IMG/VR virus record: IMGVR_UViG_2778261630_000008
Coordinates: 1 to 36,187 of that record
DNA length: 36,187 bases
Source: a virus
Taxonomy: Duplodnaviria > Heunggongvirae > Uroviricota > Caudoviricetes
Reading direction: 5' to 3' (one strand)
The notes beneath the pieces are model-generated. The model was not told the origin of the DNA, did no database searches, and saw nothing but the letters and a program-made list of their open reading frames with translations. Below, in pieces: positions 9,402-36,187 of this stretch (its first letter is position 1; each line of letters starts with the position of its first letter). The position numbers were made by a program, and so were the translations under genes.

Positions 9402-9479
9402 GAGCCGTGCTCCGTTAGAAATAACTTACTGGAGCCTTATGGTTGCGGTGATGGGGGCAGTGAAACAATGCGCGGTATT

Positions 9480-9497
9480 TGTACCGACAACCACACA
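9480..9497. promoter_or_regulatory. late-promoter activator site (TGT-N12-ACA) in the O/P divergent region
   Basis: TGT 9480..9482, 12 nt, ACA 9495..9497; centre 55 bp upstream of the P start codon. Confidence 0.5.
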
Positions 9498-9543
9498 AAC
9501 CGCAGGCGGGGAAAGCCTTCATTCAAGGCTGTAGGTTTGTGCC

Positions 9544-12352: not shown

Positions 12353-13051
12353 TTATTTGTTTCTTCTTTGTTCACGCCTTGTCTTGGCTTCGATAAGGCG
12401 TTGAGGTTCAGTGTAAAGCCGTTCTAAAAAAAGATAGGTAAAATCTTCAAGATCCTCAGCAGCAGCTTTATCCAAAATACCTTCATGCGCTCCATCATTT
12501 CCGTCATCTTTAACGCATTCAGCTAGTTCCCTTAAAGCTTCAGGCAGTAGATGATTATCAAATAACCACTCCATTCTTAACCCTAGGCTTCTCCTTATTT
12601 TTTGCGCAGGCCCTTGCTCCCCATCAGGAAGAAGTCCTTTTGTGGCATAATCAAGGCAAAGCCTAAACATGGTTGCTGCTGCATTATAACAACCTATAGC
12701 CAAACATTTCGCCCCTTCCTCATATGCACTATTGATATGCTCAGGTAAGAACTCTGGTGGCTCCTCTACTGCTAAGTCTGCCGGTGATATAGGCCTAACA
12801 ACCTCTGCAACTTCCTTTAAGCCGAATATTCCACTTTCCCAATTATAGCCATCTAAAGTTTTATTTTTCGTTAAAGGTCTGCAAAGAAACATTGTCGTTT
12901 TATGACACTCTCGGCAAACACAATAGACCTCGTACTCGTATGTTTTACCCCCGCCCAATGCATTGTAAACCCTAGTGCAATTCAGCCCATTAACATCAAA
13001 CGCTATTTTTTGTGATCCACATCGTGGACAGTCATCTACTAACATAACCAT
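12353..13051 (-). CDS. cargo protein, 232 aa: N-terminal 4-Cys zinc ribbon plus helical C-terminal domain (possibly DUF4145-like); function unknown
   Basis: ATG 13051 with GGGAGGAG RBS; CPRC...CVCRECH cysteine pairs; more AT-rich than the phage backbone; inserted between the portal stop and cos. Confidence 0.6.
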   Translation of the reverse strand: MVMLVDDCPRCGSQKIAFDVNGLNCTRVYNALGGGKTYEYEVYCVCRECHKTTMFLCRPLTKNKTLDGYNWESGIFGLKEVAEVVRPISPADLAVEEPPEFLPEHINSAYEEGAKCLAIGCYNAAATMFRLCLDYATKGLLPDGEQGPAQKIRRSLGLRMEWLFDNHLLPEALRELAECVKDDGNDGAHEGILDKAAAEDLEDFTYLFLERLYTEPQRLIEAKTRREQRRNK

Positions 13052-13160
13052 GTCAATTACTCCTCCCTATGAAAAAAATGAGTTGAAAAATTGAATATTC
13101 ACGACTTAAAAAGCTAGCCTATTTAACACCATAATTTCATTAATTCAACCATGAGCGCGC

Positions 13161-13180
13161 GCTCGTATCCCCGCCACGCC
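13161..13180. other. cos site of the prophage (186-type variant)
   Basis: Minus-strand GGCGTGGCGGGGATACGAGC shares the first 13 nt with the 186 cohesive end as I recall it; the flanks align base-for-base with the satellite cos region at 27011..27060. Confidence 0.55.
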
Positions 13181-13225
13181 TGCCCGCTTTATGTAGTGGT
13201 TTTCATGCACCTGCATGATCTACGC

Positions 13226-13250
13226 AAAAGCCCGCCAGAACTGGGCGGGC
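13226..13250 (-). terminator. rho-independent terminator downstream of the 433-aa cargo gene
   Basis: GCCCGCC / GGCGGGC stem (13230..13236 with 13244..13250) followed on the minus strand by TTTT. Confidence 0.5.
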
Positions 13251-13475
13251 CTTAGCAAAAACGATCCTCAAACGATCATGCAATATCATGCACTAAAGAC
13301 ATGCACTAACAAGTGAAACTCCGTATCCAAATGACCACTTGCGAAACATTCGAATTAATAAAGCTAAAGATCTGCAGCGCTCGAGATGCGGTCGTTAGTT
13401 TAAGAAGCTTATTAGTGCATTAGAGTTATGAGATCGTTTGACATAGGGGCTCATAAGTGTTGCTACTTCTTATAT

Positions 13476-14777
13476 TTATTCGGTTAAATTTTTCAATGGC
13501 GCACCTGGAAGATGATGATGAACAAACTTACCTTTATATTCAATATGATAGCAAAGTAACATATAGAACAATGTTAGGCATGAGTTATAATTTTTAACAT
13601 TTTCTTGCCAAGAATGTTCTTTAAAATGTTTTGCGTGCGCAGATCTATTTCTTGCTTTATACCAAGTTGTAGCTAACTCTTCTGGAAAAAATCCTTTTTT
13701 TGCCATATTAAAAAGAGTTCCTTTGACCGAGGATCTTCCACCTTTTTCTAGCAATTGAATAATCGAAGATTTAACTCTCTCGTTTATTTCAAGGTTTTCT
13801 ATCACAGGCTTAGACTCACAACATAAACTGGAAAACTCAACATCTTCTATTTTAAAAGTAGAGTAAAATTTATTTATTACACCTTCAATTGAAACAGTTA
13901 GACTGAGAGTTTCATTTTCTAAATCAGATTGATGAGCATTAAATATCTTTCTCCAATAATAGTAAAAGGTTTTATCAGTCTCGAATTTTTTAATGTATGC
14001 TTGCGAAAATTGCACCCATTCATTTAGATAATATGGAGCTCTTTGAGGAATAAAAGTCATCAGCCTCTGTTTTTCTTTATTATCAATATGCTTAAATATC
14101 AATAACCTACTGTCATTCCCTTGCCACAACACTAAAGCAGGATTGAGTAGAACCCCAGATGCAACGGACAATGAATCTAGAATACTTTTAGCATATAAAT
14201 AAGAAAAATCATCATCAGAATCAAGACAAATCCTAGTGTATTTATCCTCTAAAAGAATGCTAACATTTATATTATTCAACGAAAATACGGATCTCGTCCT
14301 ACGCTTCCCTTCCTCACCTAAGTCTTGAAATTCATTACAAGGGATATTAATTTTTTGCGGGATGAAAAATATTACTTTATGTTTTTTAAAATCCCCATCT
14401 ATTTTTCTTTTTATTTCATAAAGCTCACAATCAATGCTTACCCCTTGTTGTGAAGCATTGATATTTACATATGGGTCAACATCTTTTGCTTGCCATAAAT
14501 ACCCATTCAAATCAATCGCATTCATAGAAAAAAGATATTCACTACCGATGATTTCTCCATAATCAAGATGATTATATGTTGGGCATGTGCTAAATTGAGC
14601 ATCAGTTTCTTTATGTAAGAACTTTAGATGAATTTTATTATTTTTATAATAAAAAAATCCAGAACCTGTAAACATTTTTGGATTTTCATTAGTTTGTTGT
14701 GTGAGAGTCACCTCAATTAATTCATGAGTAAATGAACCAGCCAATAGTTCTTCAATTTTTTCTTTAACAATGTTCAC
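13476..14777 (-). CDS. cargo protein, 433 aa, strongly AT-rich; C-terminal HEPN-like R-N-x3-H motif; candidate anti-phage / abortive-infection effector
   Basis: GTG 14777 with AAGGAAGGA RBS; motif WYKARNRSAHAKHF near the C-terminus; sits at the cos-to-gene-A accessory locus (old/tin position of P2); composition contrasts with the backbone. Confidence 0.7.
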   Translation of the reverse strand: MNIVKEKIEELLAGSFTHELIEVTLTQQTNENPKMFTGSGFFYYKNNKIHLKFLHKETDAQFSTCPTYNHLDYGEIIGSEYLFSMNAIDLNGYLWQAKDVDPYVNINASQQGVSIDCELYEIKRKIDGDFKKHKVIFFIPQKINIPCNEFQDLGEEGKRRTRSVFSLNNINVSILLEDKYTRICLDSDDDFSYLYAKSILDSLSVASGVLLNPALVLWQGNDSRLLIFKHIDNKEKQRLMTFIPQRAPYYLNEWVQFSQAYIKKFETDKTFYYYWRKIFNAHQSDLENETLSLTVSIEGVINKFYSTFKIEDVEFSSLCCESKPVIENLEINERVKSSIIQLLEKGGRSSVKGTLFNMAKKGFFPEELATTWYKARNRSAHAKHFKEHSWQENVKNYNSCLTLFYMLLCYHIEYKGKFVHHHLPGAPLKNLTE

Positions 14778-15034: not shown

Positions 15035-15268
15035 TTAATGCAGCCAGCTGTCGTCTTCCCACACCTTCTGCATAATTTTCATCACTTGTTTTCTTTCTTC
15101 ATCCAGTTGCAGTCCGGTTAGTTCCACACCGTTAGAGCTACCTTTGCGAATGCGAATTACCGTTTTGGGATACAGGGGGCGCAGATTGCGGTAAAGCTCG
15201 GATTCAAGGGCGTTCAGGGTAGACTGGCTAATCTTCTGCTCTTTATCGATCATTATTTCAATGCGCAT
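15035..15268 (-). CDS. DinI-family protein
   Basis: ATG 15268 with GAGGTGA RBS; 77 aa (MRIEIMIDK...VWEDDSWLH) resembling DinI as recalled; second gene of a LexA-box operon. Confidence 0.8.
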   Translation of the reverse strand: MRIEIMIDKEQKISQSTLNALESELYRNLRPLYPKTVIRIRKGSSNGVELTGLQLDEERKQVMKIMQKVWEDDSWLH

Positions 15269-15278
15269 AAAAGTCACC

Positions 15279-15467
15279 TCAGCTGATGACATCCATTGAG
15301 CGGTTGTATTCGTGGCTTCTGATTTTTGCCATGAGTTCATCAGTCAATTCAGAAACCCACTGCAGAGCCAGCCCCTTCTCTTCATCACTACACTCACTAG
15401 CCGCTACAAGCTTAAGAAAAAAATCAATGCGCTGGAGCTTCAAAGACTCCAAAAAATAGTCCTGCAT
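15279..15467 (-). CDS. small SOS-operon protein at the Tum (antirepressor) position of 186
   Basis: 62-aa ORF, ATG 15467 with AGGAGGAA RBS, ~40 bp downstream of a LexA box; function inferred from position only. Confidence 0.5.
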   Translation of the reverse strand: MQDYFLESLKLQRIDFFLKLVAASECSDEEKGLALQWVSELTDELMAKIRSHEYNRSMDVIS

Positions 15468-15509: not shown

Positions 15510-15525
15510 CTGTTTATATTTACAG
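15510..15525 (-). promoter_or_regulatory. LexA box (CTGT-N8-ACAG)
   Basis: CTGTTTATATTTACAG: exact CTGT, 8 A/T-rich nt, ACAG, upstream of the orf62/DinI-like operon. Confidence 0.65.
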
Positions 15526-20960: not shown

Positions 20961-21076
20961 AGTGCAGTATCTCTTAGTTTGGTTTCGTTTTATCTTGTTT
21001 TATGTGGTTTGGTTTTGCTTTTCAAACCATGAATGGATATTAAGATCACTTTTTATATACGTCAAGAGGTTTGATT
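20961..21076. promoter_or_regulatory. immunity switch region (lytic and lysogenic promoters and operators)
   Basis: 110-bp AT-rich intergenic between apl and cI with repeated TTTTGCTTTTC / GTTTTATGTGGTTTGGTTTTG motifs; promoter positions not resolved. Confidence 0.45.
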
Positions 21077-21709
21077 ATGAGTTTAATCAAGGCAGGGAAT
21101 GATAGTGGTGGGCGCGATGCGATTAATAGGCTTATTAAGGCTTACAACTTCAGCTCACGACAGCAGCTCTGCGAACATCTGGAAGTATCAAAAAGCACTA
21201 TGGCTAACAGATACTTAAGGGATAGCTTTCCTGCCGAATGGGTAATCCAATGTGCCCTTGAAACAGGAGCTTCCCTTCTTTGGCTGGCTACTGGTCAAGG
21301 AGATATGTATGCGTGTGAGAACGAAGAAACAAATCTCAAAAATGAACCTCCCGTCACTGTAAGACCACTTTCTAAGATCGTTGCTCCTAGCATCAAACGT
21401 GTTGAACTGAAGAACGGCGAACTGCAGCCAAGTGATGAAATTCTTCTTGATAGCAGCCTGCTCGATGGTGACTCATCCAACGCTTTATTTGTTAAAACAG
21501 CTAATGATAGCTTTGTAGTGGATACGTCTGTTAAACAAGTCAGTAATGGCTTCTGGTTAGTCGATATGGACGGAGTTAAAAGCATCGTCAAAATTGCGCG
21601 CATACCCGGAAACAAAATAGTAGTTAACCAAGATGACACTTCATTTGAATGTTCTGTAGATGATGTGGAAGTCGTAGGACGTGCAGTCAAAGTAATCAAG
21701 AACCTCTAA
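21077..21709 (+). CDS. cI: CI immunity repressor
   Basis: ORF-track start 21071 is TTG; ATG 21077 has AGAGG RBS; N-terminal HTH and C-terminal oligomerisation-like domain; followed by int as in 186. Confidence 0.8.
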   Translation: MSLIKAGNDSGGRDAINRLIKAYNFSSRQQLCEHLEVSKSTMANRYLRDSFPAEWVIQCALETGASLLWLATGQGDMYACENEETNLKNEPPVTVRPLSKIVAPSIKRVELKNGELQPSDEILLDSSLLDGDSSNALFVKTANDSFVVDTSVKQVSNGFWLVDMDGVKSIVKIARIPGNKIVVNQDDTSFECSVDDVEVVGRAVKVIKNL

Positions 21710-21712
21710 CTT

Positions 21713-22753
21713 ATGACCATCAGAAAACAGCCGAACGGAAAATGGTTGTGTGAGTGCTATCCCAATGGACGCAATGGTAAGCGCGTGCGTAAGCAATTTG
21801 CTACCAAAGGCGAAGCCATTGCGTTTGAAAGCTTCACAATGGAAGAAGTGAACAAAAAACCATGGCTAGGGGAAAAGGAAGATCGGCGACATCTATCAGA
21901 ATTAATTGAGCTGTGGTATTCCCTGTATGGTCAAACACTCGCAGACCCCAAGCGCCTCATGGCGAAACTTAGAATTATCTGTAATGGTCTAGGCGATCCC
22001 ATCGCCTCAGAACTGACAGCTGGTGAGTTTACGAAATACCGCGAAGCACGGTTAAAAGGTGAAGTACGAAATGAAGATGGCACGCTTATGTCGCCAGTTA
22101 AGCCCCGCACGGTAAATCTTGAACAGCGCAACCTATCATCTGTTTTTGGTACACTGAAAAAGCTGGGCCACTGGTCAGCCCCCAACCCGCTTGCTGGGCT
22201 GCCAACATTTAAAATTGCTGAGGGTGAATTGGCGTTCCTGACCCCGGAAGAAATTAAACGTCTGCTGGATGCCTGTGCTGATTCTCAAAGCCCCAGTCTG
22301 CTGATGATTGCAAAAATATGCTTGGCCACCGGCGCACGCTGGAGCGAAGCCGAAAACCTACAGAGTCATCAGGTATCAAAATACCGTATCACTTATACCA
22401 AGACTAAAGGAAAGAAAAACCGAACAGTGCCTATTTCAAAGGATTTATATGAAGAACTGCCTAAGAATAGGGGAAAATTATTTACACCTTGTAGGAAAGC
22501 TTTTGAACGTGCGGTAAAACGAGCTGGTATCGAGCTACCAGAAGGGCAATGCACACACGTATTACGACATACATTTGCAAGTCACTTTATGATGAATGGC
22601 GGAAACATACTGGTGCTGCGCGATATTCTGGGCCATGTCGATATAAAAATGACAATGATTTACGCCCACTTCGCTCCCGACCATCTGGAAGATGCTGTAA
22701 CCAAAAATCCTCTTGCTAACCTTGGATGGAGAAAATTAGAAAGTGCTTGTTAA
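21713..22753 (+). CDS. int: tyrosine integrase
   Basis: 346 aa with C-terminal R...H.LRHT...Y catalytic region; 4 bp after cI stop. Confidence 0.9.
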   Translation: MTIRKQPNGKWLCECYPNGRNGKRVRKQFATKGEAIAFESFTMEEVNKKPWLGEKEDRRHLSELIELWYSLYGQTLADPKRLMAKLRIICNGLGDPIASELTAGEFTKYREARLKGEVRNEDGTLMSPVKPRTVNLEQRNLSSVFGTLKKLGHWSAPNPLAGLPTFKIAEGELAFLTPEEIKRLLDACADSQSPSLLMIAKICLATGARWSEAENLQSHQVSKYRITYTKTKGKKNRTVPISKDLYEELPKNRGKLFTPCRKAFERAVKRAGIELPEGQCTHVLRHTFASHFMMNGGNILVLRDILGHVDIKMTMIYAHFAPDHLEDAVTKNPLANLGWRKLESAC

Positions 22754-22859
22754 TAACTATATCCAACAATACCCATGGATATCGTACTTACTTATCATAA
22801 TATATTTTATATATATATGCCTTGAATTATATCTATGCGTATCAAAAAAAGGCTTTAAC

Positions 22860-23789
22860 ATGGATGAAAGGCCATTAACAAGTCAATACTTATTTAAACA
22901 ATCACTTAGGATTCCTGTATTTTCAGCGATATACTTTGGTATATTTTCCTGGCTTGGACATTCCCCTCAATTTGATAGTGAGGGCTTTAATAATTTCATT
23001 GCAATTAGCAAGCTTCCTATCGCCTTACTTTCTTTGTCCATACCATTTGTTGCTGTCGTAGCAAACATACACCGCACAGTTCAAACAAACCGACAAATTG
23101 AGGAAACCAAGCAAAAGAATCTATCTGATAGCTACTATAGCCATCTAAAGTTCGTTACTGATTATTTCACCAATTTACCTAACAAAACCATTAAACGCGA
23201 ACGTCATTATGGTACTAAAGAGATAAGTTATAAAATTAACTACCCAATACATCTATATAGATATATTTTCATAAATAGCTCACCAGAGAAGGGACGGCCT
23301 AAAAATACAGATAAAGAATACATACGTGAAGTAAATAATCACTGGGTTGATATACTAAAAAACCTAGAGAAGATACTTTCATCTAATCGTGGCTCTCAGT
23401 TTGACGAAGTTTTAATCCGTCAAATGCAATCTCTTCATTCAATAGAAAAACACTTATCCGAACTTAATCGAATGCTTTGCCTAACTCCCATGGAGTTAAA
23501 TGAACATGCAACTTTATACTTTGATGGATATGAAATGATTACTAACTTCATGTCCAGCATTGAACTTGGCGATACAATTGAAACCTACTTCAAATTTACC
23601 ATTGATATTCTTGATATTACCGATAATTTCCTTTCATTCAAGGATGATGGCTCGTCTGGGCAAATCATTATACTAGCAAGATTACTGAAAGATAATAATC
23701 CAGCTATCTTTGATGAAATTGTAACAAACAAAGGGAAGGCTCAACCTTCGTTGACCTACAATGGCGACAGATTGGCGACAGAACATTAA
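22860..23789 (+). CDS. cargo protein, 309 aa, AT-rich, two N-terminal TM helices; function unknown
   Basis: ATG 22860 after an AT-rich promoter-like stretch (TATATATATA); hydrophobic segments IPVFSAIYFGIFSWLG and IAISKLPIALLSLSIPFVAVVANI; lies between int and the att core. Confidence 0.6.
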   Translation: MDERPLTSQYLFKQSLRIPVFSAIYFGIFSWLGHSPQFDSEGFNNFIAISKLPIALLSLSIPFVAVVANIHRTVQTNRQIEETKQKNLSDSYYSHLKFVTDYFTNLPNKTIKRERHYGTKEISYKINYPIHLYRYIFINSSPEKGRPKNTDKEYIREVNNHWVDILKNLEKILSSNRGSQFDEVLIRQMQSLHSIEKHLSELNRMLCLTPMELNEHATLYFDGYEMITNFMSSIELGDTIETYFKFTIDILDITDNFLSFKDDGSSGQIIILARLLKDNNPAIFDEIVTNKGKAQPSLTYNGDRLATEH

Positions 23790-23874: not shown

Positions 23875-23919
23875 ATGTAGGAATTTCGGACGCGGGTTCA
23901 ACTCCCGCCAGCTCCACCA
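23875..23919 (+). other. ssrA: tmRNA (ssrA) 3'-terminal 45-nt segment = attachment-site core shared by the prophage and the satellite
   Basis: ATGTAGGAATTTCGGACGCGGGTTCAACTCCCGCCAGCTCCACCA matches the E. coli tmRNA 3' end as I recall it; sequence upstream diverges, so this is not a full tmRNA gene. Confidence 0.8.
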
Positions 23920-23952
23920 CTTGCTCTTCCGGATACGTCCGGAGAAATCCTG

Positions 23953-23988
23953 AAAGCCCACATGGAACAAGCCTTGTGGGCTTTTTTG
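23953..23988 (+). terminator. rho-independent terminator (ssrA-type)
   Basis: GCCCACA / TGTGGGC stem followed by TTTTTT (23982..23987). Confidence 0.65.
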
Positions 23989-24030
23989 TGTCCTCAGTTG
24001 TCCGAGAATATCCCGCTAAATCCAGTGATT

Positions 24031-24083
24031 ATTGGTATACGTTTAGGTATACGGTAAGATGTATACCTAAAAGCGTATACCAA
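24031..24083. repeat. integrase arm-type repeats (GGTATAC-containing, direct and inverted)
   Basis: ATTGGTATACGTTTAGGTATACGG then inverted GATGTATACCT and CGTATACCAA; a near-identical direct copy lies at 34434..34460. Confidence 0.4.
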
Positions 24084-24103
24084 TTCATAAAGGAGCGGCC
24101 AAA

Positions 24104-25297
24104 GTGGCAAGAACGACACGCCCCCTGACCAACACAGAAGTGCTGCGCGCAAAAGCGTTAGAAAAGGATCTTACATTGCATGATGGCGATGGTCTTTTTC
24201 TTCTCGTTAAAACGAACGGTAAGAAGTTATGGCGTTTCCGTTATCAACGTCCGACAACAAAGCAGCGGACAATGATGGGGCTAGGTGCCTTCCCAGCCAT
24301 ATCGCTTGCAGATGCCAGGAGATTAAAAGCTGATTATCTTTCATTATTAGCCAATGGAATTGATCCGCAAATTCAAGCGAAAGTGGCAGAGGAACAGCAA
24401 CAAATCGCGCTTGACAGTATTTTTTCAACAGTCGCCGCTAACTGGTTTCTGCTCAAAAGCAAAAGCGTTACCCCTGATTACGCAAAAGACATTTGGCGTT
24501 CACTTGAGAAAGACGTATTCCCCACTATCGGTGAGATCCCCGTTCAGAAGATCAAAGCCCGAACATTAATTGAAGCTCTTGAGTCCGTCAAAGCTCGAGG
24601 GGCGCTAGAGACCGTTCGTCGACTGGTGCAACGCATTAACGAGATAATGATTTATGCGGTTAACACCGGTTTGATTGATGCAAATCCAGCATCAGGTGTT
24701 GGTATGGCATTTGAGAAACCTAAAAAGAAAAATATGCCAACACTACGCCCAGAGGAATTGCCTAATCTGATGCATTCATTAACAATGTCAAATCTATCTG
24801 TCTCTACTCGATGTCTCATTGAATGGCAACTCCTAACTCTTGTCCGCCCTTCTGAAGCTTCAGGCACTCAATGGGCTGAGATCGATTTAGATGCGAAACT
24901 CTGGATAATTCCAGCTGAAAGAATGAAAGCAAAACGAGAACACATTGTTCCTTTGTCCCCCCAAGCTTTAGACATTTTGAATATAATGAAACCCATCAGT
25001 GCTCATCGTACACATGTTTTTCCTAGCAGGAGTGACCCCTTAAAACCAATGAATAGCCAAACGGCAAATGCCGCATTAAAGCGAATTGGCTTCGCTGGCA
25101 AACTAGTAGCCCATGGTCTACGTTCTATTGCAAGCACCGCCTTAAACGAACGTGGTTACAATCCTGATGTTATAGAAGCAGCTCTTGCTCATAGCGATAA
25201 AAACGAAGTACGTCGCGCTTATAATCGCTCGGTTTATTTAGAAAAACGTAAGCAACTAATGAATGATTGGGGGCAAATTGTGCACCCCCAATCATAA
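24104..25297 (+). CDS. int: P4-family tyrosine integrase (IntA-like)
   Basis: 397 aa, GTG start with AAGGAG RBS; strong resemblance to CP4-57 IntA / P4 Int as recalled; ~185 bp downstream of the ssrA core. Confidence 0.9.
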   Translation: MARTTRPLTNTEVLRAKALEKDLTLHDGDGLFLLVKTNGKKLWRFRYQRPTTKQRTMMGLGAFPAISLADARRLKADYLSLLANGIDPQIQAKVAEEQQQIALDSIFSTVAANWFLLKSKSVTPDYAKDIWRSLEKDVFPTIGEIPVQKIKARTLIEALESVKARGALETVRRLVQRINEIMIYAVNTGLIDANPASGVGMAFEKPKKKNMPTLRPEELPNLMHSLTMSNLSVSTRCLIEWQLLTLVRPSEASGTQWAEIDLDAKLWIIPAERMKAKREHIVPLSPQALDILNIMKPISAHRTHVFPSRSDPLKPMNSQTANAALKRIGFAGKLVAHGLRSIASTALNERGYNPDVIEAALAHSDKNEVRRAYNRSVYLEKRKQLMNDWGQIVHPQS

Positions 25298-25346
25298 AAA
25301 ACGATTTCAGTCCAAGCAACTATTAAAATTCAATAGATTGGGGACT

Positions 25347-26931
25347 TTATGTAGATTTAACATCAAGATGTTCTCCACAGTATCCGATAATTATTTTACG
25401 TTTACTTCTATCAACCCAAAAGTGGATTCTTATAGTTTCAGACTTGGAGCGGGCTGTTCCTATACCAACGTGTTGGAACATCTTTATTTTTTGACCATTA
25501 TAGTCAAACTCTCTCATTTTAGATAATGTAGCAGATCGCTCTACCGTCTCTGATTCATTTGCTGAATAAGCATCACCAAGAATATCTTTGGCCTTATTAT
25601 CTCCATTTTCAAGATACTCAAGAAGATATTCTGTACAAAGTTTATATAATAAATAAATCAATCTATGATTGTGTTTGAATTTCGATGAGTTCCTCGCTGA
25701 AGAAAATGCTGATTTAAGAATCTCAACATTATTAGGGATTAGGATTTCTAATAAACTCAAAACGGACTCAGGGTTTAACCTATTGCTAATTAAAGATATT
25801 ATCTTTTCAACATCAACATCACCATCAGTAGCTTTTCCATGGTATTTCCTAATATCGTATTTTAACCTTTCTAAGTCTACTTCTATTTTATTTTTTTCAA
25901 AGACAACTGCATCATGCTTTGCATCCAATTCCTCAATCCTTTTTAAATAATCAAGCTCTAATTCTTCACTAGCAGCCTTAAACTCCTCAAACTCTAAGAG
26001 GACTTCATCGAGCAAAGCTTCATACTGAGCACCATCTTTTAACTCATTTAATCTCTGCCTAAAAGAAATATTATCATCACGCTGTCTTTTGGCACGAACA
26101 TTAGCTGGTGATAAATGCAACTTTTTATTATAGCCATTAAAAGCATGCGTTATTACTGATAATATATAATTATTAATAGGAACATTACCCGCTTTAATTT
26201 CATCAACTTGCTTCGGGAGAAAAAGTTTTGTTCCTATATACCCTGACTTATTCATTGGGTAAATAATATTTATTGCCCCCCCCCCAAGATGAATAGTGTC
26301 TTCCAAGTAATCGTTCCATTTCCCAAGAGTCCATTTTACCACTTGTTGCAACAACCTGAGCAAGCCCAATAAGTTGCTCCTGTAGTTTTTCAGGTATAAC
26401 AGGAAATCCATCATTACCTTCACTAATAAAAACTAGCGGGTAGGTCCTGTCATCCCTAGAAATTTCATGCATAAGATACTGAAAGTCGCCATACTGACTT
26501 TTAATATAATCCACTTTCTGGCCGATAACATCCAGATCGAATACACAATTCCGTTTCAAATATGATACCAGAGATGGACGAGTAGCAATTGGTTTTGCAT
26601 CAACCATAGTGCTAACATCACTTATTTCTAACAATATAGATATAAACGTGCTTCCTTTTTCACGTCTAATTCCAATTTCTGTAATCCATTGTCTACCGCT
26701 CACATTCCTATCAGGATGAGTGTACATTATGGAATATATTTTAGGTTCCATTCTATCAGCCGTGTAGGTTCTAACATAGGCTCGCTCTAAATTCCAATCA
26801 CGCCGCGAAAGTAGCTCATCTGTTGATAGGCGAATATTAGCAACCCTATTAAGCCAACCACACACAGAACGCACTACGCTAAAAAAACTATCTTCACCGA
26901 TGCAATTAAACGAATTAACATAAACTAACAC
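25347..26931 (-). CDS. satellite hotspot gene, ~528 aa if read through a G10 tract; as written split into 227-aa and 358-aa overlapping frames; function unknown
   Basis: GTG 26931 with AAAGGAGA RBS; frame A (26931..26248) and frame B (26423..25347) overlap by 176 bp with the homopolymer inside the overlap; loss of one G fuses them; AT-rich; between int and cos. Confidence 0.55.
26276..26285. repeat. homopolymeric tract, C10 on plus strand (G10 on coding strand)
   Basis: Ten consecutive C at 26276..26285, at the junction of the two frames of the hotspot gene. Confidence 0.95.
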
Positions 26932-27019
26932 TACAATCTCCTTTCACTCATTTAAAGGGGAGGCTGAAAAGGAGTTATCTTATATACTTTTTGTAAATTA
27001 TTTCAATCTTTTGCGCGCA

Positions 27020-27038
27020 GTGCTTTCCCCGCCTCGCC
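27020..27038. other. cos site of the satellite (P2/P4 type)
   Basis: GTGCTTTCCCCGCCTCGCC is the reverse complement of GGCGAGGCGGGGAAAGCAC, the 19-nt P2/P4 cohesive end as I recall it. Confidence 0.8.
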
Positions 27039-27140
27039 CGCCCGCTTTGCGGGGCGGTTTTAATGCAGTTTCACTGACACGCTCAGGCCGCGCCGGGAAT
27101 GGCGCGGTCTGCAGAAAATGAGGCAGGAAAACGCATGCAA

Positions 27141-27172
27141 AGCCATGCACCTTATCGATGCATGGCTTTTTT
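27141..27172. terminator. stem-loop terminator between cos and psu
   Basis: AGCCATGCA / TGCATGGCT 9-bp stem with T-run on the plus side and A-run on the other; could terminate the sid-delta-psu transcript. Confidence 0.45.
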
Positions 27173-27202
27173 CAGTAAAAACAGGCGGATTTTCGGGGAA
27201 TT

Positions 27203-27775
27203 TTACACAGACTGACGTGATGCCAGTTGCGCACTTTTACGCGAAAAAATCATGTTCTGCGCAGGGGTGAATTTTTCACGGCTGTCATCCACCGAAGCCG
27301 CGTCAGGCCTGAATCCGATGGCCGTTAAAATGTCGCTATCCTGTGCGGAATAATTAATTTTTTCCCCCTTCGCAAGCCAGGACAGAAGGGCTTCACGCAG
27401 GGCATCTGTGGTACGCTGTATGGCACAGTTTCGGGCAATGGCCGTCAGCTCACTGTAGCCCATCAGCTCCGGTGCCAGTGCCGCCGCCAGTGCTGTACCG
27501 TGCTGCTGCATAAAATCATTCAGCCGGTCGCGGATGCTGATGTGCTGAACGGCTTCATGCGAACGAATATAACGACCGGCGGCCTGATTCACCTGCCATT
27601 TTCTGACTTCGATAATATTGCGTAATTCGTCCAGGCGGCTGACGTTTCTGCCTTCTCCTGACAGAAGCCGCAGATATTCCTGTTCGGCCGCTGCCAGCTC
27701 ATTTTTGCGTTGCAGCCATGCTGCTTTGTTATTCTGACAGGTGTCAAAGGCCTGCTGTAAGGCTGTGCTTTCCAT
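27203..27775 (-). CDS. psu: polarity suppression protein Psu (capsid decoration / Rho antagonist)
   Basis: 190 aa, the P4 Psu length; last gene of the sid-delta-psu operon next to cos. Confidence 0.9.
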   Translation of the reverse strand: MESTALQQAFDTCQNNKAAWLQRKNELAAAEQEYLRLLSGEGRNVSRLDELRNIIEVRKWQVNQAAGRYIRSHEAVQHISIRDRLNDFMQQHGTALAAALAPELMGYSELTAIARNCAIQRTTDALREALLSWLAKGEKINYSAQDSDILTAIGFRPDAASVDDSREKFTPAQNMIFSRKSAQLASRQSV

Positions 27776-27848
27776 CGTTATCTCTTTCTCATCATGCTGA
27801 AGAATAAAAATACGGTGTGCGGCGACGGCCGGGGTTAACCGGCAGCCC

Positions 27849-28349
27849 TCATTCCAGACGCAGCGAATATGATTGTGTTTTTAACCGTACTGGCGGCAGT
27901 TCCTGTTTTTCATGCAGGCGTTCTGCCAGTTCGTCCGGCGTGACCGGGCGGACAATGAAGCGGTTGATGGTCTGAAGCGTTTTAAACACCAGACCACAGC
28001 CCGGATCCGTGCACACATAAAAACGCTCGGTGACTTCCTGAGACAGACGCCGCGATGTTCTTGACAGTGCAAGGCCTTTACATCTCCGACAACAATATCC
28101 GGTAACAAGCATTCTTTTCGGGCGTTTCATACTGCCGGAGGCCGACGTCAGTGAATCGAGGTATCTCTGTTTGCCTGAAATGTATTCCATTCCTGAATCT
28201 TTACAGTCAGAGAAAAAGCTTTCACTCGCTTCAAATGTCGCAGAGCAATAAATATTCCGGCACTGTGCAATCATTATCTTGGTGCCATCGTCCATGAAAT
28301 GTGCGCGACGGGTGTGAGCAACATGTCCACACGACGGGCAGTAAATCAT
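27849..28349 (-). CDS. delta: Delta late-gene transactivator (duplicated Ogr-type zinc finger)
   Basis: 166 aa with two CxxC...CxxC units (CPSCGH... and CCRRCKG...); start overlaps sid stop. Confidence 0.9.
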   Translation of the reverse strand: MIYCPSCGHVAHTRRAHFMDDGTKIMIAQCRNIYCSATFEASESFFSDCKDSGMEYISGKQRYLDSLTSASGSMKRPKRMLVTGYCCRRCKGLALSRTSRRLSQEVTERFYVCTDPGCGLVFKTLQTINRFIVRPVTPDELAERLHEKQELPPVRLKTQSYSLRLE

Positions 28350-29080
28350 GACAGCAGTCCTCTGGCCTTAAGCTCTGCTCCCTGCTGGTCTATTTTGTCC
28401 TGCCACACCTTGCGCTGTGCCGGTGTGCCTGCCACCTCATAATCCATGTGCGGGAGTGTTGCCGCTGACAGTCCGGTCAGCCGGAGAACCGGCTCGCCGG
28501 TGAGGCTGATTTGCATCTGTTTTATTTTCTGTTCCAGCGATGATTTCACCTGCTGCATGACAGCTTTATCGGGTGCGACGTAGCCCTGATGGCCGGTGGT
28601 GTTGGCGAGCGGATTTTCCTGTACCAGGATGCTCAGATGCATTGCCCGGACAAGCGCCTCACAGGTTTCATTCAGGGCGTGTTCCAGCTCATTCTCTGCA
28701 TACAGACTCAGAAGGTGATGATGTGCCTTCCGGTAGGCGGTGGCCGTGCTGTCACACGCCCCTTTCAGGCGTTCACGTTCAAAATTCAGCACCACGGCCA
28801 GATTGTCATATTCCTGTACCAGCTCCCGGCGTGCCACGCGCTCAATGTGGCGCTGTTTCAGCTCGTCGCTCAGGACACCTCCGGCTGCACGAAAGGCCGT
28901 GCGCCAGTCGTCAGCGTCGTTTCCGTCGGCCTGCGCCAGCGCATTTTTTTCCTGCTCTGCCCGTTCAATAGCCGTGACGGTCTCATCCATCAGGCGGGCG
29001 TTCTCAAGATGAGCGACTCTGGCCTTTTCCAGTTGTGCCAGCGCGGGTTGCAGATATTCAGGGATGGTGTTGTCAGACAT
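28346..29080 (-). CDS. sid: Sid external scaffold (capsid size determination)
   Basis: ORF-track start 29098 is GTG; ATG 29080 with GAGGAG RBS gives 244 aa, the P4 Sid length. Confidence 0.85.
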   Translation of the reverse strand: MSDNTIPEYLQPALAQLEKARVAHLENARLMDETVTAIERAEQEKNALAQADGNDADDWRTAFRAAGGVLSDELKQRHIERVARRELVQEYDNLAVVLNFERERLKGACDSTATAYRKAHHHLLSLYAENELEHALNETCEALVRAMHLSILVQENPLANTTGHQGYVAPDKAVMQQVKSSLEQKIKQMQISLTGEPVLRLTGLSAATLPHMDYEVAGTPAQRKVWQDKIDQQGAELKARGLLS

Positions 29081-29114
29081 TTTCCGGCTCCTCGTCACTT
29101 CAGGTTAAGAAAAT

Positions 29115-29132
29115 TGTGACGTACACCGGACA
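29115..29132. promoter_or_regulatory. TGT-N12-ACA activator site upstream of sid (Psid-type late promoter)
   Basis: TGT 29115..29117, 12 nt, ACA 29130..29132, just upstream of the sid start. Confidence 0.5.
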
Positions 29133-29249
29133 ACAACACGACGCATTGCAGATGTGCCAGCCCTGACACAGGAGACTCATCCTCAGACCGGCAAGCCAGG
29201 AAAAGGTCGCAGGAAAAACCGGCTTACTGTTTGTTTTTTTATATTTTAC

Positions 29250-29363
29250 TGTTCACCTCTGTTCACCATAAGAAAAAAGATAAGTAATACAGTAAGTTAA
29301 ATGGTGAACAATCGCAGTAATGACTGTTCACCGTCTGTTCACCACTGTTCACCACTGTTCACC
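29250..29363. repeat. iteron cluster (TGTTCACC octamers), ori-like
   Basis: Six direct TGTTCACC copies (29250, 29260, 29325, 29336, 29346, 29356) plus one inverted GGTGAACA (29303); this octamer is the alpha-protein binding repeat of P4 ori/crr as I recall it. Confidence 0.7.
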
Positions 29364-29521
29364 CGTTGATGGGCTTTTTGTGCTGTTTATTACTTTTTAT
29401 TTTTATTAATTCACTGAAATAAATAAGAAAAAACAATTTGTATTTCACTATAATTTTTTCCAGCCCCTTCCAGAGCGTTTTAAAGCTATCTGGCGCTGAT
29501 GTGCAAAAAATACACAGCCAT

Positions 29522-29539
29522 TGTAAGACAGCCTGAACA
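29522..29539. promoter_or_regulatory. TGT-N12-ACA activator site upstream of vis (PLL-type promoter)
   Basis: TGT 29522..29524, 12 nt, ACA 29537..29539; ~110 bp upstream of the vis start. Confidence 0.45.
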
Positions 29540-29641
29540 AATCCCCCCTGTTGCGTCTGCTGAAAATATTCACAAAATAAAGCGCTACCCGAAGCCGGAC
29601 GGACTTATCCGGTGCTGTATGGACATTAACGAGGTAGCCCG

Positions 29642-29908
29642 ATGCAAGCTGTTTTTTCTTCCCCGTCTCCCGCTCCTGTAACGCCACTGATTCCGCTGCC
29701 GGACATCACGCAGGAGCGTTTTTTACGTCTGCCGGAAGTGATGCACCTGTGCGGCCTGTCACGCTCGACCATCTATGAACTCATCCGTAAGGGGGAATTT
29801 CCGCCGCAGGTGAGTCTTGGCGGTAAAAATGTGGCCTGGCTGCACTCTGAAGTCACTGCATGGATGGCCGGGCGCATTGCCGGACGCAAACGGGGGTACG
29901 ACGCATGA
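29642..29908 (+). CDS. vis: Vis / AlpA-family excisionase-type regulator
   Basis: 88 aa, the P4 Vis (orf88) length; AlpA-like HTH ([29 protein letters not shown]); GAGG RBS. Confidence 0.8.
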
Positions 29909-30036
29909 TGATGCCTGTTCTGCAAAAACTCCCTTTTTCTGGCTTGCCTTTTTCCGGCATTTGCGGATATAGTTTTTCCGCTGCCGCAAAATCGGCAGCC
30001 GGGCGTGAGAACCCGTGTAACTCGAAGGCGACATAT

Positions 30037-30058
30037 GACGCGCCATGCGTCTTTTTTT
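30037..30058 (+). terminator. short hairpin with T7 tract (candidate attenuator/terminator in the vis-to-orf66 gap)
   Basis: GACGC / GCGTC 5-bp stem (30037..30051) followed by TTTTTTT (30052..30058); weak stem. Confidence 0.35.
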
Positions 30059-30297
30059 GTGTCGCAATCAACGCCACAGAGCGCCAGATTATGGTGTGGC
30101 GTGTGGTTTGCCGTGCAGGTATGATCCTGTTCGCAATCACATGTTATGCCACTGAGTCAATGGTAGCTCAGGCGGGGCAGCCTCCGGGCTGGCCGGTATT
30201 CTTCGAGGCCGGTATTCTCACCCCCGTCTGGGCTATCGCCATCGAGCGTGAGAACTCCGGCGATAGCAGTTATTTGCTACTCGAAGGAGGCTGCCTT

Positions 30298-30495
30298 ATG
30301 GCTACAACCCTTACCCCCTCACACCCTGAATTTGTCTTTGTGTTTGCCGCTGTCCGTCGCGCAGACCGTCATCCCCGTATCTGCATGCTTCGCACCGTCG
30401 CCGGTGATGAACGCAGTGCCCGCCGTTCCCTTGTCCGTGACTATGTGCTCTCCCTTGCTGCCCGTCTGCCGGTGATGGGGGTGTCCCGTGCGTAA
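30298..30495 (+). CDS. small left-operon protein, 66 aa (kil position of P4?)
   Basis: ATG 30298 preceded by GAAGGAGG; the longer upstream extension of this frame looks non-coding and low-complexity. Confidence 0.4.
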
Positions 30496-30775
30496 TAAAA
30501 AAGCCCCTCAGACCGTCTCAGCGCGTCATGACGCCCGTGAACACCTCAGCATTGAGGCTTACCATAAGCTCAACCGCGCCAGCGCCGTATCCCAGTTTGT
30601 TGGGGGTGATTTGATTCACCGTGAACTCTCCGGCCTGCATCAGCTCTACATTCCGCATATTTTCAGCTACCTGAATGAGGATATTGATTTTGTGCTGAAT
30701 GAGCTGAAAGCCAAAGGCCTGTGCCGTGATTTTCTCGCCCAGCAGAAAGACCGGGGAGACAGGACGCATGTTTGA
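30488..30775 (+). CDS. small left-operon protein, 95 aa (epsilon position of P4?)
   Basis: GTG start overlapping the previous stop; size and order relative to orf151/cnr/alpha match my recollection of P4 epsilon; no sequence-level confirmation. Confidence 0.4.
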
Positions 30776-31223
30776 TTTTCCCCAGCCCGGTGAGATTTAC
30801 CGTTCTGCCGGTTTTCCCGATGTGGCCGTGGTCGGCATTCTGGAAGACGGTATTCCGTGGGAAATGCCGTACCGCTGCCCGGACATTGTCTGGAACCCGT
30901 ACCGCCGTAAATTCAGTATCCTTGTGCGTATCCTCGCTGACGGACGCACCACAGACATCCCGCTGGGGCGTTTTCTGCGGGAATTTACCTGTGACCGTCC
31001 TGACCTGTTTAAACGCAGCCCCGTAAACCGGCATGCGGTACTGAAAGAAATGGCCGGAGACCCGGAATTACAGAAATGGCGGGAGAAATATCTGGATATT
31101 TACCCGCAGGCCCCTGTTCCGGTCAGCCGGGCGGCACCGGTGGCGCGGGAATGGCGGGAAATTCCCCGCACGGAGTCTGACCCGGAAATCACCCCGGATA
31201 ACAGTTACCGCAATTATCTGTAA
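30768..31223 (+). CDS. left-operon protein, 151 aa (P4 orf151-like)
   Basis: ATG 30768 ([12 protein letters not shown]...) with GGAG upstream; length and position equal P4 orf151 as recalled. Confidence 0.55.
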   Translation: MFDFPQPGEIYRSAGFPDVAVVGILEDGIPWEMPYRCPDIVWNPYRRKFSILVRILADGRTTDIPLGRFLREFTCDRPDLFKRSPVNRHAVLKEMAGDPELQKWREKYLDIYPQAPVPVSRAAPVAREWREIPRTESDPEITPDNSYRNYL

Positions 31224-31358
31224 TTAAAAAACGACACCCGAAAAATTAAATGTGCGTATTCGCGCAGGGATACGCACGTCTTCAGGAGACGCAGATATGC
31301 CTTATCAGTTAATGCAACCGGCACGGAATGCAGTCATCTGTCACAGGGAGGAAAACAA

Positions 31359-31679
31359 ATGAAAACACCCTTACCGCCCGTCTTACGCGCTGCCCTTTAC
31401 CGTCGCGCTGTCGCCTGTGCCTGGCTGACCGTGTGCGAACGTCAGCACCGCTACCCGCATCTCACCCTTGAGTCACTGGAGGCGGCCATCGCCGCTGAGC
31501 TGGAAGGCTTTTATCTGCGCCAGCACGGTGAGGAAAAAGGGCGTCAGATAGCCTGTGCCCTGCTGGAAGATTTAATGGAATCCGGCCCCCTGAAGGCCGC
31601 GCCGTCGCTGTCCTTTCTCGGGCTGGTTGTGATGGATGAACTCTGTGCCCGTCACATAAAAGCGCCGGTACTGCACTGA
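31359..31679 (+). CDS. left-operon protein, 106 aa (P4 Cnr/orf106-like)
   Basis: ATG with GGGAGGAAAA RBS; 106 aa immediately upstream of alpha. Confidence 0.55.
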
Positions 31680-31693
31680 AGGAGAACAACACC

Positions 31694-34027
31694 ATGAAAA
31701 TGAACGTAACCGCCACCGTCAGCCATGCGCTCGGCCACTGGCCGCGTATTCTCCCGGCGCTGGGGATTCAGGTGCTGAAAAACCGTCATCAGCCCTGTCC
31801 GGTCTGTGGCGGGAGTGACCGCTTCCGTTTTGATGACAGGGAGGGGCGCGGCACCTGGTACTGCAATCAGTGTGGTGCCGGTGACGGCCTGAAACTGGTT
31901 GAAAAGGTGTTTGGTGTTTCCCCGTCCGACGCGGCCGCAAAGGTGGCTGCCGTGACCGGCAGCCTGCCCCCGGCTGACCCGGCAGTGACGACCGCCGCCG
32001 GTGCTGAAACAGACGCTGCCCGGAAGAACGCCGCCGCACTGGCACAAACCCTGATGGCGAAAACCCGTCCCGGAACCGGTAACGCCTACCTGACCCGCAA
32101 GGGCTTTCCCGGCCGGGAATGCCGGATGCTGACCGGCACACACAGAGCCGGTGGCGTGAGCTGGCGCGCCGGTGACCTTGTGGTGCCACTGTATGACGAC
32201 AGCGGCGAACTGGTTAACCTTCAGTTAATCAGCGCTAACGGCCGTAAGCGCACCCTGAAAGGCGGACAGGTCAGGGGCACCTGTCACACCCTTGAAGGAC
32301 AGAATCAGGCCGGAAAACGTCTGTGGATAGCGGAGGGATACGCGACCGCACTTACCGTGCATCACCTGACCGGTGAAACGGTGATGGTGGCGCTTTCTTC
32401 CGTGAACCTCCTTTCTCTGGCCAGCCTTGCCCGGCAGAAGCATCCGGCCTGTCATATTGTCCTTGCTGCTGACCGTGACCTCAGCGGTGACGGCCAGACA
32501 AAAGCCGCCGCAGCCGCAGATGCGTGTGAAGGTGTTGTTGCCCTGCCGCCGGTCTTCGGTGACTGGAATGATGCCTTCACGCAGTACGGCGGGGAAGCCA
32601 CCCGTAAGGCCATTTATGATGCCATCCGGCCACCGGCTGAAAGCCCGTTCGACACCATGAGCGAAGCGGAGTTTTCCGCCATGAGTACCAGCGAAAAGGC
32701 CATGCGTATCTATGAGCATTACGGCGAGGCGCTCGCGGTCGATGCCAACGGCCAGCTTCTGTCCCGCTATGAAAATGGTGTCTGGAAGGTGCTGCCGCCA
32801 CAGGACTTTGCCCGGGATGTGGCCGGGCTGTTTCAGCGTCTGCGCGCGCCGTTCTCCTCCGGGAAGGTGGCCTCCGTGGTGGACACCCTGAAGCTGATTA
32901 TTCCGCAGCAGGAAGCCCCCTCCCGCCGCCTGATTGGCTTTCGTAACGGCGTGCTCGACACGCAGAGCGGCACGTTCCACCCGCACAGTCCGTCACACTG
33001 GATGCGCACCCTGTGCGATGTGGATTTCACCCCGCCGGTGGAAGGGGAAACGCTGGAAACCCACGCCCCCGCGTTCTGGCGCTGGCTTGACCGTGCCGCC
33101 GGTGGTCGTGCGGAAAAACGCGACGTGATTCTGGCCGCACTGTTTATGGTGCTGGCAAACCGCTACGACTGGCAGCTCTTTCTGGAGGTGACCGGCCCCG
33201 GCGGCAGCGGCAAAAGTATCATGGCCGAAATAGCCACCCTGCTGGCCGGTGAGGATAACGCCACGTCGGCCACCATCGAGACGCTGGAATCCCCGCGTGA
33301 ACGTGCCGCGTTAACTGGCTTCTCACTGATACGCCTGCCGGACCAGGAAAAATGGAGCGGCGACGGTGCCGGACTCAAGGCCATCACCGGCGGCGATGCG
33401 GTGTCCGTTGACCCGAAATACCGGGATGCATACTCCACGCATATCCCGGCGGTAATTCTGGCCGTGAACAATAACCCGATGCGCTTCACCGACCGCAGCG
33501 GCGGCGTGTCACGCCGGCGGGTGATTATTCACTTCCCGGAACAGATAGCCCCGCAGGAGCGCGACCCGCAGCTTAAGGACAAAATCACCCGCGAGCTGGC
33601 GGTCATCGTGCGTCACCTGATGCAGAAGTTCAGCGACCCGATGCTCGCCCGGTCACTGCTTCAGTCCCAGCAGAACTCAGACGAGGCGCTGAACATCAAA
33701 CGGGATGCCGACCCGACGTTTGATTTTATCGGCTATCTGGAAACCCTGCCGCAGACCAGCGGCATGTATATGGGGAACGCCAGTATCATCCCGCGCAATT
33801 ACCGTAAATACCTCTATCACGCCTATCTGGCCTACATGGAGGCAAACGGCTACCGGAATGTACTCAGTCTGAAAATGTTCGGGCTGGGGCTGCCGGTGAT
33901 GCTGAAGGAATACGGACTGAATTACGAGAAGCGCCATACCAAACAGGGGATACAGACCAACCTGACGCTGAAAGAGGAAAGCTACGGCGACTGGCTGCCA
34001 AAATGTGACGACCCTGCAACAACCTGA
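31694..34027 (+). CDS. alpha: alpha primase-helicase (zinc-binding N-terminus, primase, SF3-type helicase, iteron-binding C-terminus)
   Basis: 777 aa, the P4 alpha length; CPVCGG...CNQCG zinc motif at the N-terminus, Walker A GPGGSGKS mid-protein; GGAGAA RBS. Confidence 0.95.
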   Translation: MKMNVTATVSHALGHWPRILPALGIQVLKNRHQPCPVCGGSDRFRFDDREGRGTWYCNQCGAGDGLKLVEKVFGVSPSDAAAKVAAVTGSLPPADPAVTTAAGAETDAARKNAAALAQTLMAKTRPGTGNAYLTRKGFPGRECRMLTGTHRAGGVSWRAGDLVVPLYDDSGELVNLQLISANGRKRTLKGGQVRGTCHTLEGQNQAGKRLWIAEGYATALTVHHLTGETVMVALSSVNLLSLASLARQKHPACHIVLAADRDLSGDGQTKAAAAADACEGVVALPPVFGDWNDAFTQYGGEATRKAIYDAIRPPAESPFDTMSEAEFSAMSTSEKAMRIYEHYGEALAVDANGQLLSRYENGVWKVLPPQDFARDVAGLFQRLRAPFSSGKVASVVDTLKLIIPQQEAPSRRLIGFRNGVLDTQSGTFHPHSPSHWMRTLCDVDFTPPVEGETLETHAPAFWRWLDRAAGGRAEKRDVILAALFMVLANRYDWQLFLEVTGPGGSGKSIMAEIATLLAGEDNATSATIETLESPRERAALTGFSLIRLPDQEKWSGDGAGLKAITGGDAVSVDPKYRDAYSTHIPAVILAVNNNPMRFTDRSGGVSRRRVIIHFPEQIAPQERDPQLKDKITRELAVIVRHLMQKFSDPMLARSLLQSQQNSDEALNIKRDADPTFDFIGYLETLPQTSGMYMGNASIIPRNYRKYLYHAYLAYMEANGYRNVLSLKMFGLGLPVMLKEYGLNYEKRHTKQGIQTNLTLKEESYGDWLPKCDDPATT

Positions 34028-34034
34028 CCCACCT

Positions 34035-34059
34035 GACCGGCATCTGCCGGTCTTTTTTT
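34035..34059 (+). terminator. rho-independent terminator of the alpha operon
   Basis: GACCGGC / GCCGGTC stem with ATCT loop followed by TTTTTTT (34053..34059), 8 bp after the alpha stop. Confidence 0.7.
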
Positions 34060-34074
34060 ATCCCTGAATTCCCC

Positions 34075-34375
34075 GAAGGTGAACAATCCACTGTTCACCC
34101 TTCACCGTATATTCACCCGTTATCACACTGAAATTAAAAGAGAAAAATGAAAGGTGAACAGTGTGAACAATCAAATCAAAAAAAACTTTTTTCTCCCTGT
34201 GTGATTTCAGTGCGGGGGATTAATCACCGGTATGAGTCACACCGGCAGAATGCCGGAGGTGAAGAATCGAATGTTCACCCTTCACCCATTATTAACCACC
34301 TATCACTCTGAAATAAAAGGAGAAAATCAAAGGGTGAACAGTGTGAACAGTTCTTTCGAAAAAAAATTTTTTTCC
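34075..34375. repeat. crr-like region: two ~120-bp direct repeats, each carrying GGTGAACA/TGTTCACC octamers
   Basis: Unit 1 ~34075..34195 and unit 2 ~34255..34375, period 180 bp, near-identical; about 4.9 kb from the other iteron cluster, matching the P4 ori/crr arrangement as recalled. Confidence 0.75.
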
Positions 34376-34433
34376 TGTACGATATAGCATCAATCCAAGT
34401 AAAAATGCGCTTTCATTTCACATTAACTTACAG

Positions 34434-34460
34434 CCATTGGTATACGATTAGGTATACGCA
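34434..34460. repeat. arm-type repeat copy at the satellite right end
   Basis: CATTGGTATACGATTAGGTATACGCAC, direct copy of 24031..24053. Confidence 0.4.
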
Positions 34461-34511
34461 CAAAAACTGAATTAAACAAAATCGTTAAAAATCAAAGCAA
34501 TATAATATTTA

Positions 34512-34531
34512 TTCAAACTCCGCCAGCCTCA
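34512..34531. other. degenerate copy of the ssrA 3' core (candidate attR of the satellite)
   Basis: TTCAAACTCCGCCAGCCTCA versus TTCAACTCCCGCCAGCTCCA in the 23875..23919 core; roughly 19 of 23 positions match when two indels are allowed; arm-type repeat ~50 bp to its left. Confidence 0.35.
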
Positions 34532-34654: not shown

Positions 34655-34680
34655 AAAGCCCGCTGATGCGGGCTTTTTTA
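34655..34680. terminator. bidirectional-looking terminator in host intergenic DNA
   Basis: AAAGCCCGC-TGAT-GCGGGCTTTTTT hairpin. Confidence 0.5.
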
Positions 34681-35110
34681 TTGGTCCTGACCCGCCCTGA
34701 ATAGAATTCATCCAATTACAGTCCAGACATATACAGTATCCCTCAGCTCAGTATCAGCTTCTCGACAAATGGTCACTGTTATTTACCCGTTGCCAGAAAG
34801 AGAATAATTTGCTCCCATAGCCAGCCTTCCCGGAATCTGTATATTCATTAATATTGTTATCGATTCCATCAAGTAACATAGGTTGGATGCGATTGATCTT
34901 ACTCACATTAGTCGACACGGAACTCAGTAAGTTGAACTCTGAAAAAGCAGTTTAAATAGCATTTAAACAAATGCCACCAGTTCGAAAAAGAGTATAAGCA
35001 CACTTAATATATTGTTTTAATTATTCATTTCCTTTCAACCCAATTCTTATCCCTCACATTATTTGTTATTAATTTGTTGTTTTTGATCACAATAAGAAAA
35101 CAATATGTAA

Positions 35111-36187
<1,077 letters not shown>

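Follow-up and report, generated by a model that had tools for sequence, protein, structure and literature searches.

Between positions 30298 and 31679 of a 36,187-nucleotide viral DNA stretch (the window, which is the whole of IMG/VR record IMGVR_UViG_2778261630_000008), short open reading frames stand in series ahead of a large alpha-like gene, beside a P2-family prophage. The locus raises two questions: whether these genes are the early operon of a P4-type satellite, and whether one of their products could awaken the prophage next door. Very probably, 30298-31679 holds the coding sequences nearest the promoter of a left (early/replication) operon, and this operon belongs to a P4-type satellite prophage (approximately 23875-34528) that appears intact and is integrated at the 3′ end of ssrA; the neighbour, with its 186-type switch and no C-type repressor, is not expected to be derepressed by epsilon, and the adjacency of the two is best explained by a shared ssrA attachment site. 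The system is already known, a textbook left operon of P4 carried by a mosaic element of a common kind; at the level of sequence, the element is P4 apart from integrase, cargo and immunity specificity.

The initial annotation described ORFs of 66, 95, 151 and 106 aa in series before a 777-aa alpha gene and, from their lengths, assigned all but the first to P4 genes. All of the ORFs are present where it placed them, except that the first is 65 aa long (a one-residue miscount), and the assignments were right: in a megablast search of the phage collection, 29400-34100 is 97.0% identical in DNA to P4 (X51522/NC_001609) with 100% query coverage, and pairwise alignments of the proteins of the operon and of Vis, Sid, delta and Psu gave 97-100% identity per gene. 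The pairwise comparison with P4 proteins that the annotation had proposed thus yielded matches from 63/65 for kil to 106/106 for cnr, an outcome that excludes a lack of similarity. Coincidence of ORF lengths in the absence of homology can be dismissed outright, since the operon is 97% identical to P4 in nucleotide sequence from end to end and its proteins are nearly the same as those of P4.

The genes of the operon all lie on the plus strand. The first, kil (30298-30495), encodes 65 aa in 198 nt including the stop codon and is 63/65 identical to the P4 frame 8365-8168. The second, epsilon (30488-30775), starts with GTG and encodes 95 aa, 94 of them identical to P4 epsilon with R36Q the sole change; its match to the Pfam 'Derepression protein family' (PF25738, E 7.7e-51) covers residues 1-95 on a profile of 95 positions, which places it in the family and bears out the earlier reading of the 95-aa product as epsilon-like. 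The third, orf151 (30768-31223), encodes 151 aa from an ATG (the mechanical ORF from a GTG has 165 aa), is 147/151 identical to P4 ORF151 and matches phrog_10748 in PHROG, and the Pfam search returned no family for it. The copy-number regulator cnr, or ORF106 (31359-31679), is identical to that of P4 in all 106 residues and belongs to Pfam DUF5375 (E 2.9e-63). It is followed by the primase-helicase gene alpha (31694-34027; 777 aa, 767/776 identical to P4 alpha), in which Pfam recognizes Zn-ribbon, Toprim, D5_N and Pox_D5 domains. The overlaps of 8 nt between kil and epsilon and again between epsilon and orf151 are exactly those of the P4 annotation, and the gene order is that of P4: [PLL] vis, PLE, seqA leader, CI RNA, seqC/kil, epsilon, orf151, cnr, alpha, crr.

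The start of the operon affects its annotation. The kil ORF begins at an internal ATG, nested inside a 211-aa mechanical ORF, and matches the NCBIfam model NF033153 (phage_ICD_like, E 1.6e-21) over residues 12-59 of its 65; it sits directly 3′ of the C4-type RNA described below, as an Icd-like or P4 kil gene does. The name kil and the length of 65 aa, which accord with the Icd-like match, we take to be those of the P4 gene. In the near-identical element of Escherichia coli PapRG-06-5 (9020-9610 of locus L005) and in that of E. coli HS4, RefSeq records a 196-aa 'Icd-like' coding sequence, the counterpart of which here is 29905-30495. Promoter PLE, the leader with seqA and the CI RNA all fall inside this ORF, whose last 65 codons (kil) are the only part that the Icd-like model matches. 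The 196-aa coding sequence is probably an over-extended gene call, and the first translated gene should be annotated as the 65-aa kil, not as the longer ORF that pipelines draw through the promoter and the immunity RNA.

The region between vis and kil has the elements of an RNA immunity switch. The sole sigma-70-like site that a promoter scan detected in 29100-31800 lies at 29944-29973 on the plus strand (TTGCCT, 18-nt spacer, TATAGT), where the sequence is identical to that of P4; it is presumably PLE, a name taken over from the P4 literature. Rfam matches to C4, c4-a1b1 and isrK were all above gathering score and in the expected order. The leader RNA (29967-30057, plus strand), delimited by Rfam and a terminator scan, includes an a1/b1-type target element (c4-a1b1 at 29967-30019, 50.4 bits) and an IsrK-like element with terminator (isrK at 29980-30057, 70.7 bits); its seqA target ACTCGAAGG is at 30020-30028, and its terminator hairpin at 30037-30051 precedes a T run. 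The CI RNA, the immunity factor, is a full-length match to the C4 antisense RNA family at 30156-30243 on the plus strand (RF01695, 74.3 bits, gathering score 45), and alignment to P4 places its seqB loop, UAUUCUUCGAG, at 30197-30207. The seqC target (30279-30290, plus strand) overlaps the Shine-Dalgarno sequence of kil (ACTCGAAGGAGG), with 30279-30287 being the target stretch compared with P4. Loop sequence UCUUCGAG is complementary to CUCGAAGG of either target, counting one G-U pair, as in the RNA immunity of P4.

In P4 lysogens, the partners of CI RNA are seqA (upstream of CI) and seqC (downstream); pairing brings transcription to a premature end and so keeps the replication genes off (PMC4825925). 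By analogy with the P4 literature, a constitutive PLE transcript of the resident prophage would be processed here to CI RNA, and the seqB loop would pair with both targets on transcripts still being made, so that these terminate prematurely, leaving kil, epsilon, orf151, cnr and alpha silent. When the upstream promoter PLL is fired by Cox/Ogr-type activators of a helper or by the element's own delta, or shortly after infection, transcripts would be expected to read through, and vis, epsilon, cnr and alpha would then be made.

The specificity of the switch is where the operon departs from P4. Divergence is concentrated in 30042-30232, which is 79-87% identical to P4 versus 97-100% elsewhere. 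The CI loop is UAUUCUUCGAG here versus UAUCCUGUGAA in P4, and seqA and seqC are both ACUCGAAGG here versus AUUCACAGG in P4. Four loop positions differ, three of which are matched by compensatory changes in seqA and seqC alike; the P4 loop would mismatch the targets of this element at those three positions, and the two elements do not share the seqB, seqA and seqC sequences that homoimmunity entails. This comparison was made directly, base by base, and RNAduplex predictions on broader CI and target segments were set aside because stem sequences dominate their energies. Since loop and target substitutions co-vary, the immunity specificity should differ from that of P4, and the system should be intact but heteroimmune to it. 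Immunity is said to have changed in the same way, through co-varying seqB, seqA and seqC, in phiR73 and other heteroimmune P4-like elements.

The late genes and cis-acting sites also follow P4. Upstream of the early operon, as had been noted at the outset, are an 88-aa vis and ORFs of 244, 166 and 190 aa corresponding to sid, delta and psu, all near-identical to their P4 counterparts. The vis gene (29642-29908, plus strand), encoding an AlpA-type regulator and excisionase, is 86/88 identical to P4 ORF88 (Pfam Phage_AlpA). The other three are on the minus strand: sid, for capsid size determination (28346-29080; 244 aa from an ATG, 250 aa mechanically; 240/244 identical), delta, the late-gene transactivator (27849-28349; 162/166 identical, with two stretches matching Pfam Ogr_Delta), and psu (27203-27775; 187/190 identical, Pfam Psu E 2.9e-88). 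The cos site (27020-27038, minus strand) has the 19-nt cohesive end GGCGAGGCGGGGAAAGCAC, identical to those of P4 and P2, for which no chance matches are expected, and flanks that match P2 cos; it lies beside the int-psu hotspot, between the cargo gene and psu, as it does in P4-like satellites. The crr region (34073-34372) consists of two 120-bp direct repeats 180 bp apart, 95-96% identical to P4 crr. The ori region (29248-29363) contains TGTTCACC-type (type 1) repeats that line up with those annotated at the P4 ori. At 29442-29541, unrelated sequence (a 100-nt block with 72% identity) stands in place of the P4 stretch with three 10-bp 'ori type 2' repeats, and the flanking type 1 repeats are retained on either side.

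Seven core components define P4-like satellites according to de Sousa & Rocha: integrase, psu, delta, sid, alpA (vis), epsilon (ash) and alpha (PMC8628076). All seven are co-localised at full length in 24104-34027. The integrase is the one that differs most: the tyrosine integrase encoded at 24104-25297 on the plus strand (Pfam Arm-DNA-bind_3, Phage_int_M and Phage_integrase) is of the CP4-57 IntA type, 61% identical to IntA of E. coli K-12 versus 38% to P4 Int. P4 integrates at a tRNA-Leu gene, whereas the element here is at ssrA. A tRNA attachment site was considered and rejected, as ARAGORN found none; nor did it detect a whole tmRNA in the window. The site is instead the 3′ end of the tmRNA gene ssrA (23875-23919, plus strand, ending in CCA), identical to the annotated ssrA end of PapRG-06-5, in which the same element, at 99.1% identity, directly follows the annotated ssrA. 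The P4-like element has its attL side in this fragment, which is also where the P2-like prophage has its right junction. At the other end, a degenerate attR core-like remnant was read from the sequence at 34516-34528 on the plus strand (AACTCCGCCAGCC versus AACTCCCGCCAGC in ssrA), and two E. coli genomes that carry the element have kept this remnant at its right end. Beyond the satellite (34680-35210) the window runs on into csiD/glaH, which starts at 35210; this flank differs from that of the E. coli genomes examined, which carry ypjA there.

In the int-psu hotspot, the gop/beta/cII genes of P4 are replaced by a gene for an HEC-07-like candidate defence protein (25347-26931, minus strand). 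It gave matches to HEC-07 in PADLOC, with E 4.3e-29 for the intact 527-aa version of PapRG-06-5, and is split here into ORFs of 358 and 227 aa by one extra C in a homopolymer at 26276-26285 (C10 versus C9 in the alignment to PapRG-06-5). The extra base could be a sequencing error, the mark of a pseudogene or phase variation.

The frameshifted cargo gene, the degenerate attR core and the occupation of the CP4-57 site by an element with a CP4-57-like integrase could together be read as signs of a decaying cryptic P4 remnant, comparable to CP4-57 of K-12, in which the left operon no longer functions. Such decay is highly improbable and was rejected, as core genes and cis sites are all intact: the seven P4 core genes and also kil, orf151 and cnr are full length and 97-100% identical to P4, cos is exact, repeats occur at ori and crr, and the CI RNA is complementary to seqA and seqC alike. 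CP4-57 itself resembles the element in its integration at the 3′ end of ssrA, its IntA-type integrase and its AlpA/vis-type regulator, but has intA, yfjH, alpA and yfjI over the first 7.5 kb examined, where psu-delta-sid follows the integrase here. CP4-57 is not known to carry any of the P4 late and replication modules (sid, delta, psu and alpha among them), whereas the element here keeps them all. A further parallel is the retronphage phiR73, which has P4 architecture with cargo and an integration site different from those of the present element.

An intact satellite with an intact epsilon gene leads to the second question, which depends on the neighbour. Approximately 24 kb of P2-family prophage lies to the left of the ssrA fragment within the window (1-23919), with approximately 95% DNA identity to Elveevirus Cartapus, and this prophage is evidently also integrated in ssrA. 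Its immunity repressor (21071-21709, plus strand; 212 aa) is of the 186 CI type, with Phage_CI_repr (E 8e-33) and Phage_CI_C (E 1e-40) domains and 32% identity to 186 CI (E 1e-35), whereas its best correspondence to P2 C has E 0.19, which is not significant. No homologue of P2 C was found in the window, tblastn of P2 C against the whole of it giving only E values above 3, and so the neighbour shows no C-family repressor of about 99 aa such as an epsilon-sensitive helper would have. The remainder of the switch is also that of 186: besides the two-domain CI (N-terminal HTH, C-terminal oligomerisation) there are a CII with 70% identity to its 186 counterpart, an excisionase resembling Apl and a DinI/Tum-like protein (15035-15340, minus strand; 40% identical to 186 Tum, E 6.5e-22; Pfam DinI). 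Upstream of a small ORF and the DinI/Tum-like gene is a LexA box (15510-15525, minus strand; CTGTTTATATTTACAG), the only CTGT-N8-ACAG in the window; this consensus box suggests LexA control of the Tum-like gene and SOS induction in the manner of 186. The neighbour shares with coliphage 186 this arrangement, including the LexA-boxed gene, and an Int that is 55% identical, but differs in its diverged CI, in its location at ssrA instead of ileY and in being an Elveevirus, not an Eganvirus.

Epsilon (E) is an anti-repressor that binds the 99-aa C repressor of P2; a single substitution in C, T67I (sos), abolishes the interaction, and P2-family phages have repressors of two kinds, the C and 186 CI families, without sequence similarity to each other (PMC2995052). 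Where it is made, epsilon would be predicted to bind P2 C and so derepress a P2 prophage. The logic resembles that of phage P1 immI (c4 RNA, icd, ant), in which a C4-family antisense RNA is likewise followed by an Icd-like small lethal protein and then an anti-repressor, except that P4 epsilon targets the repressor of its helper and not its own. P4 reportedly can use 186 as a helper and does not derepress a 186 prophage; no statement on whether P4 derepresses 186 was found in the open-access literature.

The initial annotation supposed that epsilon could actively derepress the neighbouring prophage, which would make the tandem a functional unit of satellite and helper induction. In its favour, epsilon is intact and nearly identical to a proven P2 derepressor, the neighbour is itself a P2-family phage (Peduoviridae) whose cos is homologous, and the tandem recurs in E. 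coli HS4. This proposal found no support and is considered very unlikely. Because the neighbour's repressor is a 186-type CI and no C-type repressor is present in the window, epsilon is not expected to derepress it and, on the evidence of the repressor sequences, probably cannot; the two families share no similarity (PMC2995052). Moreover, epsilon lies downstream of the satellite's own CI RNA/seqA/seqC switch, which is intact, and therefore the resident prophage should not make epsilon if its terminator acts as in P4 (PMC4825925). Epsilon and cos of the satellite match P2 itself and not the neighbour, the capsid and terminase proteins of which are 40-63% identical to those of P2 and the cos overhang of which differs at 5/19 bases, and the P4-like element of PapRG-06-5 resides at ssrA with no phage beside it.

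That C and CI lack sequence similarity does not prove that epsilon fails to bind CI. It is less likely still that 186-type CI repressors are also inactivated by epsilon, matched though it is to P2, or by a different product of the left operon such as orf151; if they were, the recurrent ssrA tandem would be a co-inherited, functionally coupled unit of helper and satellite and not an accident of a shared site. The window shows just the approximately 24 kb of this one neighbour, and a second, C-type P2 prophage could conceivably be present elsewhere in the host genome. The general correction is that derepression should not be read from the presence of an epsilon gene beside a P2-family prophage: repressors in this family of phages are of two unrelated types (C and 186 CI), and the neighbour here carries the type that epsilon is not known to bind.

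Induction of the neighbour through LexA and its Tum-like protein is more likely. After SOS induction it may be usable as a helper, by a route that would involve delta/Ogr-type late transactivation. The neighbour's cos (13150-13215) is homologous to the cos of P2 and P4 (27005-27085 in the satellite), and identity to the P2 proteins is 40-63% for its portal, terminase, scaffold and capsid proteins (59% for gpN). The satellite cos is identical to that of P2 and the neighbour's has diverged; therefore, judging from these sequences, packaging compatibility between the two is uncertain.

In the arrangement itself, an Elveevirus-like prophage (1-23919) and a P4-like satellite (23875-34528) share one ssrA site and lie head to tail. 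In HS4, ssrA is likewise occupied by this tandem of P2-like and P4-like elements, with different cargo genes. Since the satellite is alone at ssrA in PapRG-06-5, the adjacency follows from the shared attachment site, and the use of ssrA by both elements explains it best. According to PMC9122126, 26-44% of E. coli genomes or isolates carry P4-like satellites, and an earlier study recorded a P4-like element lying near a large prophage (PMC8628076).

The neighbour has cargo of its own, in low-GC (32-44%) genes at 12353-14777 and 22743-23789. Beside its cos are genes for a DUF4145 protein with a weak match to PD-T7-4 and for an unannotated 433-aa protein, and after its int is a gene for a 348-aa protein with a weak match to a 2TM effector; these low-GC regions are likely to be defence hotspots of the P2 type.
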